From positions 1 through 64,000 of the IMG/VR virus record IMGVR_UViG_3300037067_015007: a stretch of 64,000 bases of DNA. One strand, given 5' to 3'. Below are positions 5,631 through 60,338 of this stretch, in pieces; position 1 is the stretch's first letter; the number at the start of each line of letters is the position of its first letter. A program made the position numbers and the translations under genes. Source of the DNA: a virus (lineage: Duplodnaviria > Caudoviricetes). The notes beneath the pieces were generated by a model. It searched no databases. It was not told where the DNA came from and saw nothing but the letters and a program-made list of their open reading frames with translations.

Positions 5631-5651
5631 TCTACCTAAATTATACCACAC
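5631..5651 (-). promoter_or_regulatory. extended -10 early promoter (TGTGGTATAAT-N-TAGGTAG class)
   Basis: gtgtggtataatttaggtag; related motif at 10434, 12930, 24947. Confidence 0.65.
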
Positions 5652-5666
5652 CTTGTTATGAAAAAT

Positions 5667-10220: not shown

Positions 10221-10249
10221 ATTCTACCAAATTTTTTGGCATATGTCAA
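10221..10249 (-). promoter_or_regulatory. sigma70-type early promoter
   Basis: TTGACA-17 nt-TAGAAT with TG extension. Confidence 0.75.
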
Positions 10250-10452
10250 TAGTTTCTACGATATTTTTTAATTTTTTTAATGGCCAGGAATTGAACGATG
10301 CACCCTATATCAGCCAACAAAAACGCCGTCATTATTATATACAAATGTGCAAATAAAAATATAAGACTAAAGAAAGAATAATATAGTATTAATAATATAA
10401 GTATTATCCTTAATATATTCATCAATTTTCTCCTACCTATATTATACCACAT
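10246..10452 (-). CDS. small membrane protein
   Basis: hydrophobic 68-aa ORF; true start probably MNILR after GGAG. Confidence 0.5.
   Translation of the reverse strand: MWYNIGRRKLMNILRIILILLILYYSFFSLIFLFAHLYIIMTAFLLADIGCIVQFLAIKKIKKYRRNY
10434..10451 (-). promoter_or_regulatory. extended -10 early promoter
   Basis: tgtggtataatataggtag. Confidence 0.65.
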
Positions 10453-10470
10453 ATAGGTATAAAAAAATGT

Positions 10471-10811
10471 CGAGCGAAGCGAGACCCGAACGAAGTGAGG
10501 CGGGAGGTAATCTTTATGCTCAAATAAAATTTGAGCAGACTTCTAACGTCCACCTTTTCTTTTTTTCATTTTTTAAGAACCGAAAAGTTTTGAATTTTTG
10601 AACCCAAATCCTAACACTTAAAAATTTTAATAACTTACAACTTTTGAGCAGAATACAATCATTAGGGTAAAATGAAAAATTTACTTACAACGTATTTCTA
10701 TGCGACACATCCACATAGCGGAGCTTTGGAACACCAACCTGACAGACCAACTGCTCCTTTAGCGAACTTGTAATTAGGAAAGTGGTTGCTCAGACCACTT
10801 GTTACCTAATT
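10471..10811. other. non-coding region with GCGAAGC-type motifs and hairpins (possible origin or ncRNA)
   Basis: CGAGCGAAGCGAG / CGAACGAAGTGAG at 10471-10500, hairpin 10517-10537, long stem-loop 10772-10811, no ORF. Confidence 0.4.
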
Positions 10812-11567: not shown

Positions 11568-12929
11568 GTTTTCATAATATCTATTCATCCTTTTGTTTAA
11601 AATAATTTTTTTATTAATTTTAGATATTTTTTCAAATTTTTCCTTGGTGTCTGCTGTTGATAAAAATTTAAAAATTGCGTCTAAGACAAAATGATTTGTC
11701 CAATATAAATTCGTTAATTGAGTTGTTTCCTTATTGCGAAAATCTTTCCTGATATTTAATCTTCTTTCAATCATTATTTGTGTGGGTTGAGTTATTTTAA
11801 ATTTATCCTCAATATTTTTTCTTGATGGATTTTTTTCCTGCCATAGATACCATTCATAGAAAGGGTCAAAAAATTCCAACCTTCTCTGCTTGATGTATTC
11901 CAACAAAAATGTGATATCAACCTCAATCATTTTGTCGGATGTACTACTCAATGAATCGGTAAATTTTTGAGTTAGTGAACGAACTTTGTTAACCTCTGTA
12001 GTTTGTTCTAAAGTTCCAATCAAATTCAAATTTTTTAGAGTTTTAAAATGTCTTTCAAAATCAATATCAAGTTCTTTCCATTTTTTCTGAAGTAGTTTTA
12101 AATCAAAGGTGAGAGACTTACCTAACAGATAAGTCATAATAAGGTCGCCTGGTTTTTCTTGTTGCATTAGAATATCTAACACATATTTTAACACACTCTG
12201 TTTTAATTTAGGTTGATATTTTACCTGTTCAAAAATTTTCTCATAAATTGAATATTGCCAATCGTCTAATTTTTTCCAAGTCTTATCATTCTTGACAGGC
12301 GGCAACTCTTTCAATATTGGTGGTTTGATGAAGTTTTTATAGAGGAAGGAACTTTTTAAAAATCCTCTATCCATTTCTCTAGAATGGTTCCAATCAAAAT
12401 AAACCTTTTCATCATCGTATGATGTCATATCAGTATAAGTCAAGATGTAATTAATTTCATTTTGATAAAAAGCACACCATTCTGACATTTTGCATGTGCT
12501 TTCACACCGCAAATTTTTTCGTAATTCATTATCTTCTTTTATCCATTCTCTATATTCAGGAGTTTGTTCATAAGTTGGTTCTTTGGATAGGTGTTTATGA
12601 ATTTCCCACGAGGCCCGAAGAATTTCTTCCAAATGACTATCTCTACAAAGCCGCTCCGTCATGGGATGATATTTTTCAGGCTTGTCAATATTCTTATCCT
12701 TGAAAATTCTTATTAGTTCCTTTTCAAAACAGGATAAATGAGTAGCCTCATAAAACCTACAACGTTTATATTTCCCCATTTCTGCACATGGTTCGCATTT
12801 GTACTTAATTAATTGAAAATCAGAAAGATAGGGATAGAAGCATGCCTTTTTTATTTTCCTAAGTTGAAACAAGAGTGGTTCCTTGGGGTTCAACAAAAAA
12901 TCGAAACTTTCCCTAAATTTGAAATTCAC
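11559..12929 (-). CDS. hypothetical protein (456 aa, Cys-rich N-terminus)
   Basis: long ORF behind an early promoter. Confidence 0.75.
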   Translation of the reverse strand: MNFKFRESFDFLLNPKEPLLFQLRKIKKACFYPYLSDFQLIKYKCEPCAEMGKYKRCRFYEATHLSCFEKELIRIFKDKNIDKPEKYHPMTERLCRDSHLEEILRASWEIHKHLSKEPTYEQTPEYREWIKEDNELRKNLRCESTCKMSEWCAFYQNEINYILTYTDMTSYDDEKVYFDWNHSREMDRGFLKSSFLYKNFIKPPILKELPPVKNDKTWKKLDDWQYSIYEKIFEQVKYQPKLKQSVLKYVLDILMQQEKPGDLIMTYLLGKSLTFDLKLLQKKWKELDIDFERHFKTLKNLNLIGTLEQTTEVNKVRSLTQKFTDSLSSTSDKMIEVDITFLLEYIKQRRLEFFDPFYEWYLWQEKNPSRKNIEDKFKITQPTQIMIERRLNIRKDFRNKETTQLTNLYWTNHFVLDAIFKFLSTADTKEKFEKISKINKKIILNKRMNRYYENNK

Positions 12930-12947
12930 TACCCGTATTATACCACA
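12930..12947 (-). promoter_or_regulatory. extended -10 early promoter
   Basis: tgtggtataatacgggtag. Confidence 0.6.
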
Positions 12948-12982
12948 AGGTGTAATAAAATTCAGAGATAAAAATAAAAAAA

Positions 12983-19500: not shown

Positions 19501-21291
19501 ATCATACAATTGCATAATTTGATTATCAGGAAATGTATCGGAAATCATCTGAAATCCAACTACTGTTGGAACGGTGATTCTTGCGCTCCGAAATTCTTCC
19601 AATTTTCCTTTCAGGTTTTTATGCCATAAAAACTCATCCATATCGCAAACGATAACCCAATCGTAATCTTCCCGATATTCTTTCCATGCCTCGTTTCGAA
19701 TTCTCATCAGTTCAAGATTATTCATCTTGTCGTTTGGCACGGGAACGATTTCAACTTTATCACATGCCCGAAGCAGTTCCAAACTCTTATCAGTCGAACC
19801 GCCGTCATAAACAATAATCTTATCTGCGAAAGTCAAATAATGACGAAGGAAAAACGGAATCATTTTTTCTTCATTCCAACATACTGCTTGAACGAGAATG
19901 CTCATAGGTTGTCCGTGGCTTCCTAATACTTCATCTACAAATATCCAAGGTTTTTCTTCAAAACAAGCCTTGGCAAAATCGAAATCATGGGTAACGAGAC
20001 CTGAAGTAACAGGCCCGACTTTTGGCCCTGTTGTTTTATGCCGCCATTTTTCCGCATGCTTTTTTGCGATATCTGCACGAACCAAATAATTTAAAGAATC
20101 GATATGTGTCCATACGGGGAAATTTTGAAATCCAGGTTCAGGTAAATCTTTGTTTTCTTCCAAATGTCTGATTTTACCCCAAGCCCCGCCGACATTTTTC
20201 AAAAATGTTGCTTGCCAAAGTTTCAAAATCCAATCAGAATTTGCTAAATTGTCGCTGTCATGAAAACAAACCCATTCTTTTTCGGTGGAAGGTAGCGAAT
20301 TTAAGACTGATATTCTTGGCCCCCCGCCGTATGCCCCCTCATGTTCAACAAAGGTATATTCTATTTCAGGAGGATTTGGTTTATTTGACCTAATAGGCCA
20401 TTCTCTATTTTTCTTTTCAACCAACTCTTGTACCTTTTCATCATGTCCATCAGAAACAACATGAATTTTAACGTTGGTATAATATTGATTATATAAAGAC
20501 TCCAATGCCTTATCGAGTTTCGTATATCGTTTATAAACAGGGACAATGACATGAACCTTTTCCCAATATTTTTCAGCAAGCAGTAGTCTGTTTTTATAAG
20601 TCTGTGTATTCCATTCGTCCAAAGAAAATAATTTGCCCGAATGCATCGTATTTTCACCAACATGACTGAGAGGAAATGAACCAACTGATGTATGTGTTTT
20701 TCTATCCCATCCATTCACATAGGAATGAATATGATATCCTGCGTTGATTGCCCGAATGCAAAAGTCAGTATCGTCCGCATAGCCTAAGCCCCAAGCAGTA
20801 TCCAATACTCCTATTCTTTCGAACACTTCCCTCTTTATCATTACACACCAACCGAGCGGGAAGTCAACTCCCGTTATAGGGCAAGGTAATGATTTGGCAC
20901 CAACCAATCCCATCAATGGGTCATTCTCAAATGGAGTCTGAAGAATTTCTAACCATCCACGGTCATGAACGATTACATCGTCATTTAAAAAAACAACATA
21001 ATCGGGATTATCATTTGGCCCTAAAATATTTTTTAGACCTTCATTAATGGCCCCGACATATCCTAAAGGTTTGTCATACCAAAGGTAACTTACAATTAAC
21101 CCTTGTTCTGCTAAAGGATTTAAGAATGCATCAAATTTTGCTCTATCTTCCATGCCGTTCATAACAATCAAAATTTTACTATTTATTTTTGGATTGTTGT
21201 TGAGATTCAGGCTTTCAATACATGGTTTAAGAGCATTGTCGAAATTAATCCCTGCGGATGGAATAAGAATAGTTATTTTCTTATCGTTCAT
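16531..21291 (-). CDS. multi-domain glycosyltransferase/methyltransferase (1586 aa)
   Basis: several GT2-like domains (VFLNDDV, CFHDSD, VCDMDE, LLLDDD, WRLDDDE), FkbM domain (IDVGANIG...LKVDCEGAEY), C-terminal GT9-N-like GIGD motif. Confidence 0.85.
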   Translation of the reverse strand: MNDKKITILIPSAGINFDNALKPCIESLNLNNNPKINSKILIVMNGMEDRAKFDAFLNPLAEQGLIVSYLWYDKPLGYVGAINEGLKNILGPNDNPDYVVFLNDDVIVHDRGWLEILQTPFENDPLMGLVGAKSLPCPITGVDFPLGWCVMIKREVFERIGVLDTAWGLGYADDTDFCIRAINAGYHIHSYVNGWDRKTHTSVGSFPLSHVGENTMHSGKLFSLDEWNTQTYKNRLLLAEKYWEKVHVIVPVYKRYTKLDKALESLYNQYYTNVKIHVVSDGHDEKVQELVEKKNREWPIRSNKPNPPEIEYTFVEHEGAYGGGPRISVLNSLPSTEKEWVCFHDSDNLANSDWILKLWQATFLKNVGGAWGKIRHLEENKDLPEPGFQNFPVWTHIDSLNYLVRADIAKKHAEKWRHKTTGPKVGPVTSGLVTHDFDFAKACFEEKPWIFVDEVLGSHGQPMSILVQAVCWNEEKMIPFFLRHYLTFADKIIVYDGGSTDKSLELLRACDKVEIVPVPNDKMNNLELMRIRNEAWKEYREDYDWVIVCDMDEFLWHKNLKGKLEEFRSARITVPTVVGFQMISDTFPDNQIMQLYDCVREGFPDPEHLNKSMIFNPKCVDIRYAMGCHQANPIGTVVKSGEALYLLHFKFAGYTEFIERNKRMADRVSDEDKKNNWAFHYARDAQMTYEEFRQLKKKASFILDDAPTSNPLIARRDLQAQNSSIFYEIVETNQYRVFKKDFIGKNVIDVGANIGIFSLLADEYGAERIVAVEPQPPTLQILKQNVAGRSILVIDKAVGKKDGEWVEMVNRPEFSPTDGRMYSRPSLSGTETIGLDHLVASIDDGKPILLKVDCEGAEYDLFYGASLKTLGKIHTIVMETHEDIFRWEGKKGLADKLCNYLMALGFEETFKQDYLEDKVKLVRYDRMKPIDDDITVVISAFNRPELLKDQVEAIKKQTLKPKEIIVWLTKSKHWEEGEWKYADNEVVKGEGWVETHFDIPEGVTLVSTEQDLKLPARFAAALFAKTNYVLLLDDDVFPAEGYLEETLKVSKREHAVVSAYGMYYENELNDGLAKRYGDNGDKTEEAVEVDVGGHSWFGRKEWFSTFFREPVLLETEGDDLHFAYTLKKYTDVKIVVSALPDNDRHIWSNTRPEAGLGIRALHARKWEDVKIWTDPTKTSWGVEDKDYLEKNLNDFNRRRQAAMEKYRTMKNWNPIQTRLTPEVSKTSNRKVDVTVDIATKNRYYSTLPLTILSVLMQTHPIKKIIIVDDSDNGPDGKMIDLRNDPMYQYLFSMISKKGIEWEVLFGPKKGQHHNHQIVLDRAKTDFIWRLDDDEYAEPNVLQDLVNLMTDGVGAVAGLVLDPKLSQMAPPNYFNTNKLSDIDTRENMQWLYHPKGKVIPVEHLYSSFLYRKVEDIKYCLELSPAAHREETLFSHEYVRKGWKIFVTTDAITWHFRNPQGGIRDHANPDFWSNDDKIFKRKLASWSIPIEGKIFQIDAGIGDTIVFMEILPKLIEKYKKVIVGTYYALLFKNFPIQVMHPFQVKDIISEKAAELQNVYRKLWTAHDKGRKLTLLEAYQEMFLEDNFD

Positions 21292-21674: not shown

Positions 21675-22424
21675 TTAACTCTTGACAATAAGATTTGCGG
21701 CTTCGGCTTCCAATTCTTCAGGTGATGCATAACCTTGTTTTATCAATCCTGATACATCTTTGACATTTCTATATCCTGCTCCAATCCATCTTGCGGCTTC
21801 ACGAGGATAAACCACAACTTCTTCCCATTCTTTTGCATCAGCAGGTTTCATATGCAATGCTTTCCATGCTTTCACCAAAGAAGGATATTTGAATCCTGCT
21901 TCTAACCAACTAGCTAGTTCCTGTAATACCACACCTGCCTCTAACCATTTTGGCACATCGGTGAGTTCTATCAGTTCCTTATTGACAAGAGGTTGAACAT
22001 ATTTGCTTAAATTTTCTAAATCGATTTTTAAATCTTCAGAAAAGCGTATCATTACATCGGGGTCTTGTACTCCAATTTTTGCCCATTTTTCATAAGTATC
22101 AGGATTGACTCCTTTCTCTTTGAATGCCGTGGCAACTTCAGGCTGAGCCTGGACCCGATGCCATCCAAGAACTTCTTTGTAGTCTTGAATACCTGCTTCG
22201 TGATAACCTTGAATATCATAAGGATTTAATTTTTGTTTATGATATATCGCCGCAACACTTGGCTCAATGCCAGGAATCATATCTCTCCAATAAGCGGCCT
22301 CTTCTGCCGCTTCTGCATTTTTTCCAAAATTAGTCTGCCATCTTTCACGGTCTATTTCATCGTCAGGAAAAAATTCACCCCAAGCCGCATCATCAGGCGA
22401 CTCTAGTTTAAAATCATCAGCCAT
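21675..22424 (-). CDS. hypothetical protein with W..AG helical repeats
   Basis: KWAKIG, KWLEAG, SWLEAG, RWIGAG repeats. Confidence 0.7.
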   Translation of the reverse strand: MADDFKLESPDDAAWGEFFPDDEIDRERWQTNFGKNAEAAEEAAYWRDMIPGIEPSVAAIYHKQKLNPYDIQGYHEAGIQDYKEVLGWHRVQAQPEVATAFKEKGVNPDTYEKWAKIGVQDPDVMIRFSEDLKIDLENLSKYVQPLVNKELIELTDVPKWLEAGVVLQELASWLEAGFKYPSLVKAWKALHMKPADAKEWEEVVVYPREAARWIGAGYRNVKDVSGLIKQGYASPEELEAEAANLIVKS

Positions 22425-22552
22425 TATTTAGTTCTCCTTCTAAAGATTCTTCTAATCCATCCTAATAAAAGAAAGGATATACCTGTGCCGTAACAAGAAG
22501 CGGCCAGAATTAACATCATCACAATTAGTAGGTTGGAAGCCTTATTCATTCT

Positions 22553-23218
22553 TCACCTACTGTTATTTAGTGTTTTATTACTTTTCATTAAATTTTCCCC
22601 CGCCCATAAAGGTTGAAGATTTGTGTAATGACATGCTTTTAGAAACTCTTTCCTGTTTTGAAGATTGAAAGAGTCTAAAGGTATAATGTGGTCAATATGC
22701 CATCCATAAAATCCGTAGTTATCCCAATTCATACCCTCTTTCCATTTAGATTCCAAATAAGTTTTGAATTCAGGAATAGAACATCCGAGGTCTTTAACTG
22801 CGGAGCCTGATTTTTGATTATTTTTTATTGCTAAACGAATTCTGCTTCTTAAATAATGAGCGAGTTTAAAATGAATATCAGTTTTTAGTTTATTATTAAT
22901 TTGTGTATATATTTTTTCTTTATTATTTTGATAATATTTCTTTTTTTCTATTTTTATTTTCTCTTTGTTGTTTTGCCGATATAATTTTTTTCTATTTTTT
23001 ATCTCTTTTTTATGATTTTCATAATATTTTGTTTCTTGTATAATTATCTCTTTTTTATGATTTTCATAATATTTTTTTTGACGTTCTTTTTGTCTTTTTA
23101 ATTTTTCTTCTTTAGATAATGTTATTCGGGGTAAAATTCCTTTTTTTCTACGATATTTTTCTCTTCTTTTCTTTATTGCTTCTTTTCTTTCTTCATCAGT
23201 AAAGTATTTTTTCTTCAC
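22553..23218 (-). CDS. HNH homing endonuclease
   Basis: WHIDHIIPL...CHYTNLQPLW..EN; KKYYENHK repeats in N-terminus; GTG start after GGAGG. Confidence 0.9.
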   Translation of the reverse strand: MKKKYFTDEERKEAIKKRREKYRRKKGILPRITLSKEEKLKRQKERQKKYYENHKKEIIIQETKYYENHKKEIKNRKKLYRQNNKEKIKIEKKKYYQNNKEKIYTQINNKLKTDIHFKLAHYLRSRIRLAIKNNQKSGSAVKDLGCSIPEFKTYLESKWKEGMNWDNYGFYGWHIDHIIPLDSFNLQNRKEFLKACHYTNLQPLWAGENLMKSNKTLNNSR

Positions 23219-23320
23219 TTTAACCTCCACCAAAGTTTAGTTAGTGTAGGTAATCCGAAAAGTGGTGGCTTTTCAGAAGGGTAGCAACTCCTTGTCCCTA
23301 CACTATTATTTAGTGTTTTA
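22563..23320 (-). mobile_element. leader RNA + HNH cassette bounded by a 15-bp direct repeat
   Basis: TAAAACACTAAATAA at 23306-23320 and 22563-22577. Confidence 0.55.
23219..23314 (-). ncRNA. endonuclease-associated pseudoknotted leader RNA, copy 3
   Basis: P1 UAGUGUAGG/CCUACACUA, P3 GAAAAG/CUUUUC, loop CCACCA pairs with UGGUGG at the SD. Confidence 0.8.
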
Positions 23321-23602
23321 AGAGAGTTCTTGTTGTAAATATTTCCAAAGAGCAGATATTTTTTCTTTATTATTTTGCCAACCAAAGGACAAAATAGCAT
23401 CCCCTACATAGAAAAACTCCTGCTCGGCTATTAGTTTTAGTTGTTTTTCTATATTGCCGCTTTTGTCAATTGTCCGAATCTTGCGTAATTCGACAAGGAG
23501 AACTTGAATTTTTTCGAACTCTTCTTCGCTAAAGTTCTCGGTCAATTGGGTTAAATCTTCTTGCGTTGGCTTTCCTAATTTTCTTTTGGATTTCTTTTTC
23601 AT
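23318..23602 (-). CDS. hypothetical protein
   Basis: 94-aa ORF. Confidence 0.6.
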   Translation of the reverse strand: MKKKSKRKLGKPTQEDLTQLTENFSEEEFEKIQVLLVELRKIRTIDKSGNIEKQLKLIAEQEFFYVGDAILSFGWQNNKEKISALWKYLQQELS

Positions 23603-24946: not shown

Positions 24947-24965
24947 CTATCTATATTATACCATA
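24947..24965 (-). promoter_or_regulatory. extended -10 early promoter
   Basis: tatggtataatatagatag. Confidence 0.6.
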
Positions 24966-24972
24966 ACCTGTA

Positions 24973-25809
24973 CTAAATCCAATACCTCACAAATCTTTTA
25001 AACAGGTCTTTTATTTCACTCTTCTTCAATTCCTTGTCTTTCAATTCATCTTTGAAAATGGCTTGCCATTTGAAGTAAAGCCACTTCGTCAGGAGTTTGT
25101 AAACAATGTTCCACGGCAAAAAATTTCTACTGCGATATTTTTGCACGATGCCTAAGTCGGCACCTTCAAGACTTTTTGAAAATTCATCGATTCTTTTTTT
25201 ATGGATGGAATCCAACTGATTGATGTAAGTATCCAATTCAAGTTGTAGATAATTCAATCTCTCATCAAAATTCAAATCTGATTTATCGTAATCAGTTACA
25301 AGTCCCTGGACCATTTCTGCAATTTCATCTAATTGAATATCCAATCGTTTTGCAATTTGGGCGGCAAGTTTTTTGGGATTGGCTAACACAGCTTCCACTT
25401 CGTCCACTTCAGCAGGTTCCTTTATCCATTTATCCTGCAATAAATCATAGATGCCGTCAGCCAATGTTTCCATATCTTTCACTTCATCATTGCGGTAATA
25501 AAAATTGATTGGGAAAGGCCCGAAGAAATGACGCTCGTTGATAACCCTTGTGGTCTTGCCATAATTTTTCAAAGTGTCCGCATCGACATCACAAAATACA
25601 TTGCAATCAATGTCGGATTCTTGCGACCAAAATTTTCCCGTAATGGAACCTACGATTATCAATTCACGATACACAATTTTTAGTTCACGAAGAATATCTA
25701 TAATCCGTATGCGAATCAAAGGGTTGATTTTTTTGTCTTTCCACACATAGGGATTTTCCGATTCTTGTGCGGGGTCAATAATAGATTCACGCAAGGTTTT
25801 GAAGTTCAT
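24973..25809 (-). CDS. Pol-beta superfamily nucleotidyltransferase
   Basis: IVGSITGKFWSQESDIDCNV (GS-x-D-x-D) plus third acidic motif. Confidence 0.7.
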   Translation of the reverse strand: MNFKTLRESIIDPAQESENPYVWKDKKINPLIRIRIIDILRELKIVYRELIIVGSITGKFWSQESDIDCNVFCDVDADTLKNYGKTTRVINERHFFGPFPINFYYRNDEVKDMETLADGIYDLLQDKWIKEPAEVDEVEAVLANPKKLAAQIAKRLDIQLDEIAEMVQGLVTDYDKSDLNFDERLNYLQLELDTYINQLDSIHKKRIDEFSKSLEGADLGIVQKYRSRNFLPWNIVYKLLTKWLYFKWQAIFKDELKDKELKKSEIKDLFKRFVRYWI

Positions 25810-26687: not shown

Positions 26688-26924
26688 GTGATGGCTTTAT
26701 ACAAATTTTCTAAGCAACAAAAATATTGCGGGACATGCGATTATTGGTATGGTTGCAGAAAACTCGATTCTATTTGGAATCCAATGTTTGTTATTGTTGA
26801 AGGAGCAGGTGCCGAAGAAATGGGAGTTTGTGGACATCGCCGCAGCGGTTGGTGGAATCAGAAGAAAAAAGCAAATATGACTTGTCCGAAATGGGAATTG
26901 TTTGCAAGGTTGAAGAATCTCTAA
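26688..26924 (+). CDS. small Cys-rich protein
   Basis: CGTCDYW...C...CPKW. Confidence 0.5.
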   Translation: MMALYKFSKQQKYCGTCDYWYGCRKLDSIWNPMFVIVEGAGAEEMGVCGHRRSGWWNQKKKANMTCPKWELFARLKNL

Positions 26925-26926
26925 AA

Positions 26927-27640
26927 ATGGGAACAATATATATAGCAACTAACTTGACAAATCAAAAGCAATATGTGGGTAGAACTGTACAAAATTTTAA
27001 AAATAGGAAAAATAGTCATATAAAATTGAGCAAAGAAGAAAATCCAAAATTCTTTTTTCATAAGGCTATTAAAAAATATGGAGTAGATTCTTTTAAATGG
27101 ATATGTATAGAATATCCCAAAAAAGAGTTGAATGAAATGGAGATGTTTTGGATAAAGACTTTGGGCACAAAGGCACCAAATGGTTACAATTTAACTGACG
27201 GTGGAGAAGGTACTTTCAACCCATCAAAAATAACAAGAATGAAAATGAGTGAAAAAAGAAAAGGTATGTATGAAGGAGAAAAAAATCCTTTTTTCGGTAA
27301 ACATCATTCTACTGAAGTTTGCCAATTTTTATCTGATATCAATAAAGGTGAAAATCATCCGCATTGGGGTAAAAAACATTCTGAAAAAACCAAGCAACTA
27401 CAATCTTTAAATATAAAAAATCATCCACAAAGAAAAGAGATAAATGAAAAAATAAGAAAAGCCAAGTTAAAAATGTTCAAATTCCTATCTCCTAAAGGAA
27501 AAGAAGTTATTTGGAAAAATGGTATCAATAAATTTTGTGAATATTATCAACTAAACTATCATAGTATTTGTGCTATTATGAGCAATCATTGGAAACGAAC
27601 CGAATATAAAGGTTGGAAGTTTTTAGGGATGGTAGAATAA
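26927..27640 (+). CDS. GIY-YIG homing endonuclease with NUMOD3 repeats
   Basis: GTIYIATN...YVGRT, PNGYNLTDGGEG, NPFFGKHH; no leader RNA upstream. Confidence 0.9.
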   Translation: MGTIYIATNLTNQKQYVGRTVQNFKNRKNSHIKLSKEENPKFFFHKAIKKYGVDSFKWICIEYPKKELNEMEMFWIKTLGTKAPNGYNLTDGGEGTFNPSKITRMKMSEKRKGMYEGEKNPFFGKHHSTEVCQFLSDINKGENHPHWGKKHSEKTKQLQSLNIKNHPQRKEINEKIRKAKLKMFKFLSPKGKEVIWKNGINKFCEYYQLNYHSICAIMSNHWKRTEYKGWKFLGMVE

Positions 27641-28794: not shown

Positions 28795-28856
28795 AATATA
28801 AAATTATGAAACATGATAAAATTCAAAACAATAAATAAGTATGATGGAGGTACAAG

Positions 28857-39991: not shown

Positions 39992-40000
39992 CATGAAAAC

Positions 40001-41954: not shown

Positions 41955-43800
41955 GATGTTTGATTTGGACAGCATTAAATCCTTAGAAGATACACAACGC
42001 AGTAATTTTTATCGTGCCCAAGTGATATCTTTGGACGACCCTTTAAATTTGAACAGAATACAAATTAATATTTTTGGCTTAACGGATGATATCCCAAGCG
42101 AAAGTTTGCCTTGGTGTGAATTGCAATTTACAGCAGGATTTTCAACTTACCCTATTCTTAATGACATTGTTTGGCTCTTTTTTGAAGGCGGTGATATTTT
42201 TCGTCCTGTATATTTAGGTACAATTTATGCGGGGCTTGATATCGATACGGATACAGGTTATGAGAAATTTTCTTTAGCAGCAGGAAGTATAACGGAATCC
42301 GCAACAGGGGTATTAGGTATAGGATACGATTTTAAAGGTATTGATGATAAAGACTCTTATCGTTCAGCCTTGCGAACTGTAAACAATGTTGAGGAAGATA
42401 AACACTTGACATTGAAAGATACAATTTCCCATTACGATGCCATTTCTTCAGGAAATACTTGGTGGAGAAAATTTTCAGGATTAGATTCTGTTAATACTGA
42501 TGATATAGCACCAGGACAAACTTTATGGCTTTCAGGGGTTGACCCCACTTATGGTAAATGTCCCTTCAAAGAGAAAAAAGTTTATCCGTGGTATGAACTT
42601 CGAGAAACTAATCAAAATAGTTGGAAATCAATTTATGGTGGATGGAGATTTTTTACAGAGACAGACTTAATTAATGGTTTAGGTTCTTTCCCTGACAATA
42701 TTCGCCGTACATATATGAAGCGTGTAAGAAATTGGGCAAATTGGACAGTTTGGAAATCACGAAAAGAAATATGGGTTCCTGAGTCGGGTCTTTATAAAAA
42801 TGCAGTTCCTAAAAGTTGGAATTTTATTCCTATGTCTGTTACTCTTTATTCCGACCCTGAATTATTCAGCGTATCTTTTTCTAGAGATGCAATAAACACC
42901 GACCCCGAAACATTAGATGAGCGTCCTGGTGGGGATTTACATACTGAAGAAATGCAGGGATTTGTCAACATTAAACCGTTCCCATTAGGGACAATGAAAA
43001 TAAAAAATCGCAAGTTTTATAAGCAATCTACATGGATGAGTTATGATGGAAAATCTGCAATAGAACTAGATGATAATGACAACTATGAACGATTAAGATT
43101 AGATTATAACTACAGCGAAGGCGGTCTTGAATTTTCCCGTGTCGGTTGGCATGGCTTGAATATATGGACAGAAGGTTCATTCATGATGAGAGCATGGGGC
43201 AGACAAGGAAATGGTAAAGGGGAAGGAATGTTTGTTGATAGTGCTATTGAATGTATTGACCATTCTCTTCTCATTAGTTCCAATAAAGCATTAATGCTTG
43301 GTGGAGATAGTTCAGCATCTTTGACATCTCTTGGCCCTGCGGGTGTCAGGTCAAAAATGAATGTAACTTCCATCACAGGTGGTGGTGGAGTAGTTATTCA
43401 AACAGAAGCAGGATTATCAACAAGAGAAGGAGTAAGTGATTTTAATAGAGGTATTTGGATGGGTTCACCTATTATTGGTGGTAATGGTCAAGCAGGTGGA
43501 GATGGTGGAATGAACGGGTGGATGCCTGTGTTATGTGATAAAGATAAAGGTGAAGCAGAAAAATATTTCAGAGCACTTAATAGTGTATTGCTTATGGTGA
43601 GAAAATTAGCGTCTATGTGTTATCAACAACCAATGGTTACAGACCAATATACAGCAGTTCCACTTGCCGTCCAACTGCGGACTTGGGCAATAGGAGCCAT
43701 GCAAGTTGTTAAAGATATTAAAGAAGGTTCCCTTTCAGCAGTATCAGTTATGGCAGGAAGTGAAAAAATTAACATAGAGGGTGCCGTAAAAGGTAAATGA
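41947..43800 (+). CDS. baseplate central spike (gp5-like)
   Basis: OB-fold YRAQV...DDPL.L.RIQ...LPW...P.LND.VW.FFEGGD..RPVYLG. Confidence 0.8.
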   Translation: MNKMFDLDSIKSLEDTQRSNFYRAQVISLDDPLNLNRIQINIFGLTDDIPSESLPWCELQFTAGFSTYPILNDIVWLFFEGGDIFRPVYLGTIYAGLDIDTDTGYEKFSLAAGSITESATGVLGIGYDFKGIDDKDSYRSALRTVNNVEEDKHLTLKDTISHYDAISSGNTWWRKFSGLDSVNTDDIAPGQTLWLSGVDPTYGKCPFKEKKVYPWYELRETNQNSWKSIYGGWRFFTETDLINGLGSFPDNIRRTYMKRVRNWANWTVWKSRKEIWVPESGLYKNAVPKSWNFIPMSVTLYSDPELFSVSFSRDAINTDPETLDERPGGDLHTEEMQGFVNIKPFPLGTMKIKNRKFYKQSTWMSYDGKSAIELDDNDNYERLRLDYNYSEGGLEFSRVGWHGLNIWTEGSFMMRAWGRQGNGKGEGMFVDSAIECIDHSLLISSNKALMLGGDSSASLTSLGPAGVRSKMNVTSITGGGGVVIQTEAGLSTREGVSDFNRGIWMGSPIIGGNGQAGGDGGMNGWMPVLCDKDKGEAEKYFRALNSVLLMVRKLASMCYQQPMVTDQYTAVPLAVQLRTWAIGAMQVVKDIKEGSLSAVSVMAGSEKINIEGAVKGK

Positions 43801-50930: not shown

Positions 50931-50942
50931 TATGATAAAAAC

Positions 50943-56805: not shown

Positions 56806-56812
56806 ATGAAAA

Positions 56813-59795: not shown

Positions 59796-60338
59796 ATGAA
59801 AAAGAAATATTTTACAGAAGAAGAAAAAATAATTGCTAAAAAAGAATATCAAAAGAAGTATAAAAAAACGCATAAAGAAGAAAGAAAAAAATATGATAAA
59901 AAGTATTGTCAAAATCACAAAGAAAATATAGCCATAAAGAAGAAAGAATATTATGAAAACCATAAAGAAAAAACAAATATATATCAAAAAGAATATAGAA
60001 ATAATAGATTAAAAAAAGATATTAATTTTAGAATGATTTGCTATTTACGAAGTAGAATGTATTGGTCAATTAGAGGAAACTATAAATCAGGCTCCGCAGT
60101 CAGAGACCTCGGTTGTCCTATTTCTGAATTTAAGACCTATATAGAATCAAAGTTCCAAGACGGAATGACTTGGGAAAATTGGAGTAAAACGGGTTGGCAT
60201 ATAGACCATATTATACCTTTAGATTCTTTCAATCTTCAGAATAGGGAAGAATTTCTAAAAGCCTGTCATTATACAAATCTTCAACCTATGTGGGCTGAAG
60301 AGAATTTGAGAAAAGGGGGTAAAGTATGCCGAACATAA
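59796..60338 (+). CDS. HNH homing endonuclease
   Basis: WHIDHIIPLDSFNLQNREEFLKACHYTNLQPMWAEEN; no leader RNA upstream. Confidence 0.9.
   Translation: MKKKYFTEEEKIIAKKEYQKKYKKTHKEERKKYDKKYCQNHKENIAIKKKEYYENHKEKTNIYQKEYRNNRLKKDINFRMICYLRSRMYWSIRGNYKSGSAVRDLGCPISEFKTYIESKFQDGMTWENWSKTGWHIDHIIPLDSFNLQNREEFLKACHYTNLQPMWAEENLRKGGKVCRT

Follow-up and report, generated by a model that had tools for sequence, protein, structure and literature searches.

A candidate homing-endonuclease cassette between two identical predicted late-promoter boxes in an uncultured T4-like phage

Free-standing endonuclease genes of phage T4 have nuclease-specific promoters of the middle or late class, and promoters of downstream genes are embedded in the coding ends of segG (gene 32), segA, segE, mobB, and mobC (PMC2988022). 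Intergenic promoters are precisely where such genes insert (PMC2988022). In the case of I-TevI, the operator overlaps the I-TevI late promoter and resembles the homing site (PMC2988022). In T4-type phages, recombination between the repeated promoter cassettes called PeSLs bounds insertions, deletions, and replacements and yields mini-circles (PMC2839356, Arbiol et al. 2010); the site of one such crossover was located downstream of the -10 element and ahead of the ATG (PMC2839356).

The locus described here comes from an uncultured T4-like phage. The window analyzed is the first 64 kb (64,000 nucleotides) of an 89-kb IMG/VR record that is estimated to be 39% complete, and a megablast search of the INPHARED phages with 5 kb gave no match. 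On the minus strand, the 94-aa gene p94 is followed by a 15-bp sequence, a leader RNA (copy 3), a Shine-Dalgarno sequence (SD) with a GTG start, an HNH-like ORF that contains a second copy of the 15-mer, and then the genes p41 and p249 (Table 1). An earlier note on this DNA had reported the 15-mer as a direct repeat bracketing the leader and the nuclease ORF, and both copies are indeed exact, lie on the minus strand, and are the only exact occurrences in the window. They stand 743 bp apart. The TAA stop codon of p94 forms the first 3 nt of the left copy, which ends 1 nt ahead of leader stem P1. The right copy, 14 nt 5' of the p41 ATG, falls in the final codons of the HNH-like ORF, whose TGA stop codon overlaps the SD of p41.

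Table 1. Features of the copy 3 locus, in window coordinates.
Feature	Position	Strand	Basis or remark
p94, upstream 94-aa gene	23318..23602	-	ORF list; bS21 gene just upstream
Left 15-mer copy, predicted extended late-promoter box of the cassette itself	23306..23320	-	core 23307-23312
Leader RNA copy 3	23219..23305	-	sequence and fold
P1 of the leader	23297-23305 paired with 23242-23250	-	sequence
P3 loop CCACCA	23263-23268	-	sequence
Pseudoknot strand, complement of the P3 loop	23227-23232	-	sequence
SD	23224-23228	-	sequence
HNH-like nuclease ORF, 221 aa	22553..23218	-	GTG start after SD
Right 15-mer copy, predicted promoter box serving p41/p249	22563..22577	-	core 22564-22569
p41, gene for a 41-aa small hydrophobic protein, first after the cassette	22424..22549	-	ORF list
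p249, conserved 249-aa gene	21675..22424	-	anchor for finding related loci

This layout is already known from the T4 seg and mob genes, and the region is a further example of it, with a possible crossover scar. As in T4, nuclease ORFs (here GIY-YIG or putatively HNH-type) occupy intergenic slots between conserved genes and are present or absent among relatives, different nucleases sit in the same slot in different phages, and the nuclease gene appears, from its sequence, to have its own late promoter together with a downstream promoter in its coding end. Unlike in T4, the same late box and a conserved pseudoknotted leader of ~90 nt precede both nuclease families, and the two predicted promoters of copy 3 are identical over 15 nt. 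The earlier note held that classical recombination-based homing would not predict such a pattern; this was mistaken, since T4 endonuclease genes combine a promoter of their own with an embedded downstream one (PMC2988022).

The 15-mer belongs to a box made up of a hexamer core, an A-rich stretch upstream of it, and an AGT a few bases downstream. In a survey of this record and one complete relative, the box was found 14-60 nt before many start codons, and the core stood upstream of an SD and start codon about twice as often as control hexamers of equal composition. The box resembles the T4-type late promoter. From its place before structural genes, the twofold enrichment, and this likeness, we infer that the core is a late promoter. 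The plus-strand cassettes lie among genes for the tail sheath, the baseplate wedge and hub, and fibre proteins. A search of the window that tolerates up to 2 mismatches finds the 15-mer 8 times, compared with 0.77 expected from shuffles. A third exact copy precedes another cassette, J, beyond the window, so the idea that the 15-mer is specific to the copy 3 cassette was rejected; the box ahead of a further cassette, K, matches the left 15-mer at 14/15. The extended consensus is common to native promoters as well. Because the box represents a general late-promoter consensus, any two promoters share much of it by default. When 13 cassette boxes and 84 candidate native promoters were compared, 15/15 identity was reached in 2 of about 1079 unrelated cassette/native pairs (14/15 in about 2%) and in 3/3486 native/native pairs. 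Exact identity between unrelated promoters is thus rare but does occur. The repeat is best described as two predicted late-promoter boxes, the left one being the cassette's own and the right one serving the next genes. The right box was also considered as the start of a second leader cassette, and this was rejected because no leader lies behind it.

The leader of copy 3 folds as a three-way junction (-23.6 kcal/mol, z -4.5). Its pseudoknot had been noted before and holds up: the P3 loop is complementary to bases just 5' of the SD and into the SD, and the loop and the SD region covary across all 7 copies in the window. Rfam searches returned no family at the gathering score for the whole window and none at E values up to 10 for the leader surroundings. 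In the whole record there are 11 leader copies, each with the same box at its start and each followed by a GIY-YIG/NUMOD3 protein or an HNH-like protein. Two nuclease genes of these families have neither a leader nor a box of their own: an HNH gene at 59796-60338, which starts directly behind the upstream fibre gene, and a GIY-YIG gene at 26828-27640. Four of the window copies (1, 5, 6, and 7) have an ATG 10-13 nt upstream of the promoter core (12-13 nt in 3/4 copies), at 11573-11575 (minus strand), 39993-39995, 50932-50934, and 56806-56808, respectively, which opens a short frame through the leader. At copies 5 and 7 this ATG follows the stop codon of the preceding gene by 0-1 nt, at copy 6 by 1 nt, and at copy 1 it is inside the preceding gene; copy 3 has no such ATG, and neither do the related cassettes J, K, and M.

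Assignment of the 221-aa ORF to the HNH nucleases is provisional and rests on one match to PHROG 1035 'endonuclease VII' (E 2.7e-13) together with a His/Asp/Asn motif block conserved across 5 paralogues. Comparison with Pfam, NCBIfam, and PDB sequences gave no match, the nuclease domain of the AlphaFold model has a pLDDT below 60, and Atlas gave only a weak HNH lead (score 0.87). Sister cassettes encode clear GIY-YIG domains. Members of the HNH family end with conserved Asn-Lys codons, which in copy 3 make up the first 4 nt of the right 15-mer.

The extent of the mobile unit was examined by comparison with G001, a complete 223-kb genome with terminal repeats that is syntenic with the record and has few intact cassettes. 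At the sites of copies 2, 5, 6, and L (the last beyond the window), the G001 counterpart genes abut or overlap with no core between them, and each of the four cassettes nevertheless starts with a box. Because these four empty sites lack a core, the target cannot have supplied the box, which must travel with the cassette. In G001, the sites of copies 4 and 7 have a single resident core and a homologous 5' UTR, both of which are found to the right of the cassette in the window, and copy 1 probably follows the same pattern. The repeats that the earlier note had placed around copies 1, 4, and 7 are borne out as promoter-core motifs at their 3' ends, that of copy 1 being degenerate. The reverse case also occurs: in G001 the 3' end of an HNH gene without a leader falls within a resident box, which the window has as a single copy (28824-28838). 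These comparisons uphold the proposal that promoter, leader, and nuclease form one mobile unit, and the unit gained or lost would be exactly this combination. In the J/K tandem (record positions 66989-68600, beyond the window; L005, L007), HNH cassette J and GIY-YIG cassette K lie in this order between two conserved genes. Ahead of K, 90 nt of the 3' end of the upstream gene are duplicated together with the box (86% identity), and between J and K there is a 5' fragment, now diverged, of the radical-SAM gene downstream. Such duplicated flanks, together with the remnant that G001 has at this slot, point to homologous recombination with flanking homology and to decay, not to transposition.

G001 itself carries mostly decayed cassettes (L030-L041), for example at about 203640-203900, 22600-22950, 19858-20330, and 123948-124100. 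In the J slot, an HNH gene survives only in its C-terminal third, and the GIY-YIG gene of the p94/p249 slot has a broken reading frame; elsewhere one leader comes with a truncated HNH gene, and another, itself truncated, is joined to HNH coding sequence. These remnants fit the cycle of gain, decay, and loss of homing endonuclease genes.

To view the copy 3 site across relatives, p249 was used as an anchor: it has 22 homologues at 55-77% identity, and the anchored search led to 18 related loci (L008-L025). Homologues of p94 adjoin bS21 in 15 related loci, and the p94 stop of the relatives is at the same codon position as here. The closest relative compared shares 76% amino acid identity in p249 and 43-50% in p94. 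A nuclease-free slot, with p41 or p249 behind p94, was found in 9 related loci; the order is p94-p249 in L010/L011, L013/L016/L024, and L014, and p94-p41-p249 in L015, L017/L018, and L019. Between p94 and the gene behind it, every empty allele has one promoter core and no more. The comparison of empty alleles suggested in the earlier note thus agrees with it at copy 3, where the junction maps to the repeat and a single core copy is found in alleles lacking the cassette. The core of the right copy and the bases from there to the p41 ATG align with the single promoter of L015, L017/L018, and L019; the core and downstream half of the right copy are therefore resident. Other relatives fill the slot differently: L008 has an unrelated 94-aa ORF there, L009 (the G001 locus) has a GIY-YIG gene that is decayed and lacks a leader, and L020/L021 have another insert. 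Across these loci the slot is seen with an HNH cassette, with the remnant of a GIY-YIG gene, with an unrelated ORF, with p41 alone, or with nothing, always with a core at the left boundary, and the interval between p94 and p249 is a variable slot. The p41 gene is itself variable, being present in L015, L017-L019, and L020-L022 and absent from L010, L013, L014, and G001.

The upstream half of the right copy has a different affinity. Its heptamer occurs in 9/36 cassettes and in 1/83 native promoters (Fisher p 8e-5). The left 15-mer has the same sequence as the box of J, which of the paralogues is closest to this cassette (75-80% nucleotide identity), and the J slot in G001 and in a third phage keeps the upstream half of the box. 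Taken together, the right copy looks like a chimera, cassette-type in its upstream half and resident in its core and downstream half.

Flanks were then compared across the family. A pattern scan of IMG/VR yielded 22 more loci, and 20 cassettes with complete flanks were tested. The longest string common to the left and right flanks averaged 7.7 nt for a cassette's own flanks and 7.7 nt for cross pairs, and among the 12 cassettes with a right-hand core a cassette's own flanks aligned at 10.1/15 identity and cross pairs at 10.3/15. An exact 15-nt flanking repeat was seen at copy 3 only (1/20 cassettes); a flanking repeat beyond the generic core was absent from the other 19. Because only copy 3 reaches 15 nt, duplication of a target of fixed length is not a property of the family. 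A position bias is nevertheless apparent: the nuclease stop lies at a late-promoter core (in the interval from -25 to +35 nt around a core with no leader behind it) in 12/20 cassettes, as opposed to 21% of ordinary genes (binomial p < 0.001). The association of the cassettes with late promoters that the earlier note proposed holds in this respect. The bias could equally be explained by selection, insertions that spare the neighbor's promoter being harmless.

We favor, with a probability of roughly 0.55, a free-standing homing-endonuclease cassette in a variable slot, with two late-promoter boxes and a junction formed by phage recombination at the boxes. The left box would drive the leader and nuclease late in infection, with the leader RNA masking the SD of the nuclease, and the right box would keep p41 and p249 expressed, the nuclease ORF running into the box and stopping at the p41 SD. 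The phage's own recombination system would use the promoter boxes as short homology, as with PeSL cassettes, and a crossover inside a box would leave the chimeric right box as its scar. We infer this crossover, the promoter activity, and the nuclease's role in spread. A single crossover does not by itself leave two identical copies; it needs either a donor with two boxes or later correction, and the likeliest donor would be one bounded by two boxes. The case for the box in recombination rests mainly on the chimera argument and the position bias. The parallel with PeSLs (PMC2839356; PMC4122927) is that repeated promoter motifs bound variable genes, that the mapped crossover site resembles the chimeric right box, and that gene gain, loss, and replacement at the p94/p249 slot are bounded by a promoter motif. 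PeSLs differ in consisting of a sigma-70-type early promoter with a terminator stem-loop in hyperplastic early regions, whereas the repeat here is a short late box without a terminator hairpin among late and structural genes.

Several other accounts of the identical boxes were weighed against this one. The identity could reflect coincidence together with selection for a strong consensus. In this account the cassette, with a promoter of its own, arrived through illegitimate recombination just upstream of a resident promoter unrelated to that of the cassette; ordinary homing then spread it, and homology between promoters had no role. Unrelated promoter pairs do reach 15/15 and 14/15 at the frequencies given above, own and cross flanks are equally similar across the family, and part of the exact identity has independent causes, since the Asn-Lys codons account for some of the right copy and the p94 stop for some of the left. 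The resident box could also have matched the 15-mer before insertion in this lineage. A chance 15/15 match, however, is expected for about 0.2% of pairs, which comes to roughly 2% when all 12 cassettes with a right-hand core are considered, and the upstream half of the right copy is of a type rare among native promoters (1/83), so that we regard coincidence as rather unlikely. Conversion of two differing boxes to identity after insertion seems very improbable: T4-type phages recombine avidly, and the core and AGT start region are common to both boxes, but the identical tract is very short for gene conversion, and copies 4 and 7 are without sign of homogenization.

Another account follows the earlier note: a unit that lacks a promoter or seeks one would enter at late promoters, with 15 bp of the target being duplicated. 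An exact, sharp-ended repeat, a single core at the copy 3 junction in empty alleles, and the enrichment of cassettes beside late promoters would all suit such a model, and a transposon target-site duplication likewise shows a direct repeat that brackets the insert and is single (here at least its core) in empty alleles. Nonetheless, four empty sites are free of a promoter while the cassettes at those sites carry one, 19/20 cassettes lack a flanking repeat beyond the generic core, and own flanks are no more alike than cross pairs. Moreover, the left 15-mer also occurs at paralogue J, at another site, in two phages, and the layout is common to two unrelated nuclease families. In contrast to a transposon, the unit has no transposase, integrase, or other recombinase, only a leader and a nuclease ORF; the other copies lack a repeat of fixed length; and what is repeated is one promoter consensus, not a sequence specific to the site. 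SegA and intron-encoded GIY-YIG enzymes leave 2-nt 3' extensions and not 15-nt staggers (PMC2988022). As a general rule, target duplication is largely refuted, the model as a whole appears improbable, and the copy 3 junction was most likely made by recombination, not by a staggered cut. Hardly better placed is a reading modeled on I-TevI, in which the 15-mer would be a binding site of the putative HNH enzyme, serving both autorepression and recognition of the cassette-less junction. Here too a sequence over the nuclease's own late promoter resembles the insertion-site sequence, the box over the nuclease promoter being the same as that at the junction. I-TevI, though, is intron-encoded and its binding was shown, whereas the sequence shared here, as read from the DNA, is a general promoter consensus; the pattern is absent from the other 19 cassettes, and a binder of the general late consensus would meet dozens of sites in its own genome. 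This account, too, is improbable.

As the evidence stands, the repeat itself calls for no new insertion mechanism. The comparisons fix the boundaries of the mobile unit for this leader-RNA family as promoter box, leader, and nuclease, and suggest that these selfish genes settle where the neighbor's promoter stays intact, as in T4. If crossover in promoter boxes does occur, the regulatory motifs that guide gene shuffling in T4-like phages would include a second class, that of short late promoters. A broader and more tentative idea, which we consider possible yet doubtful, is that the late boxes of this phage group act as portable recombination sites, with two-box cassettes excised and reinserted at other late promoters, leaving chimeric boxes behind. 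Were this true, the portable boxes would be the late-gene counterpart of PeSLs and would explain the 60% of nuclease genes that end at a late promoter.

Two further features of the window were noted. A repeat family distinct from the late box, D18, has four copies (5632-5663, 10433-10464, 12929-12960, and 24947-24978), the reverse complement of which is an extended -10 motif of the sigma-70 type; these are probably early promoters of minus-strand operons, including the operon that continues into bS21, p94, and the HNH cassette. Downstream of the GIY-YIG gene of copy 1, about 585 nt (10221-10805) contain no ORF of at least 100 aa, and searches of this stretch for tRNAs and Rfam families gave no match. 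A segment of it around 10700-10760 (minus strand) is conserved in G001 near 42280-42360, and the stretch may be an unannotated RNA or regulatory region.
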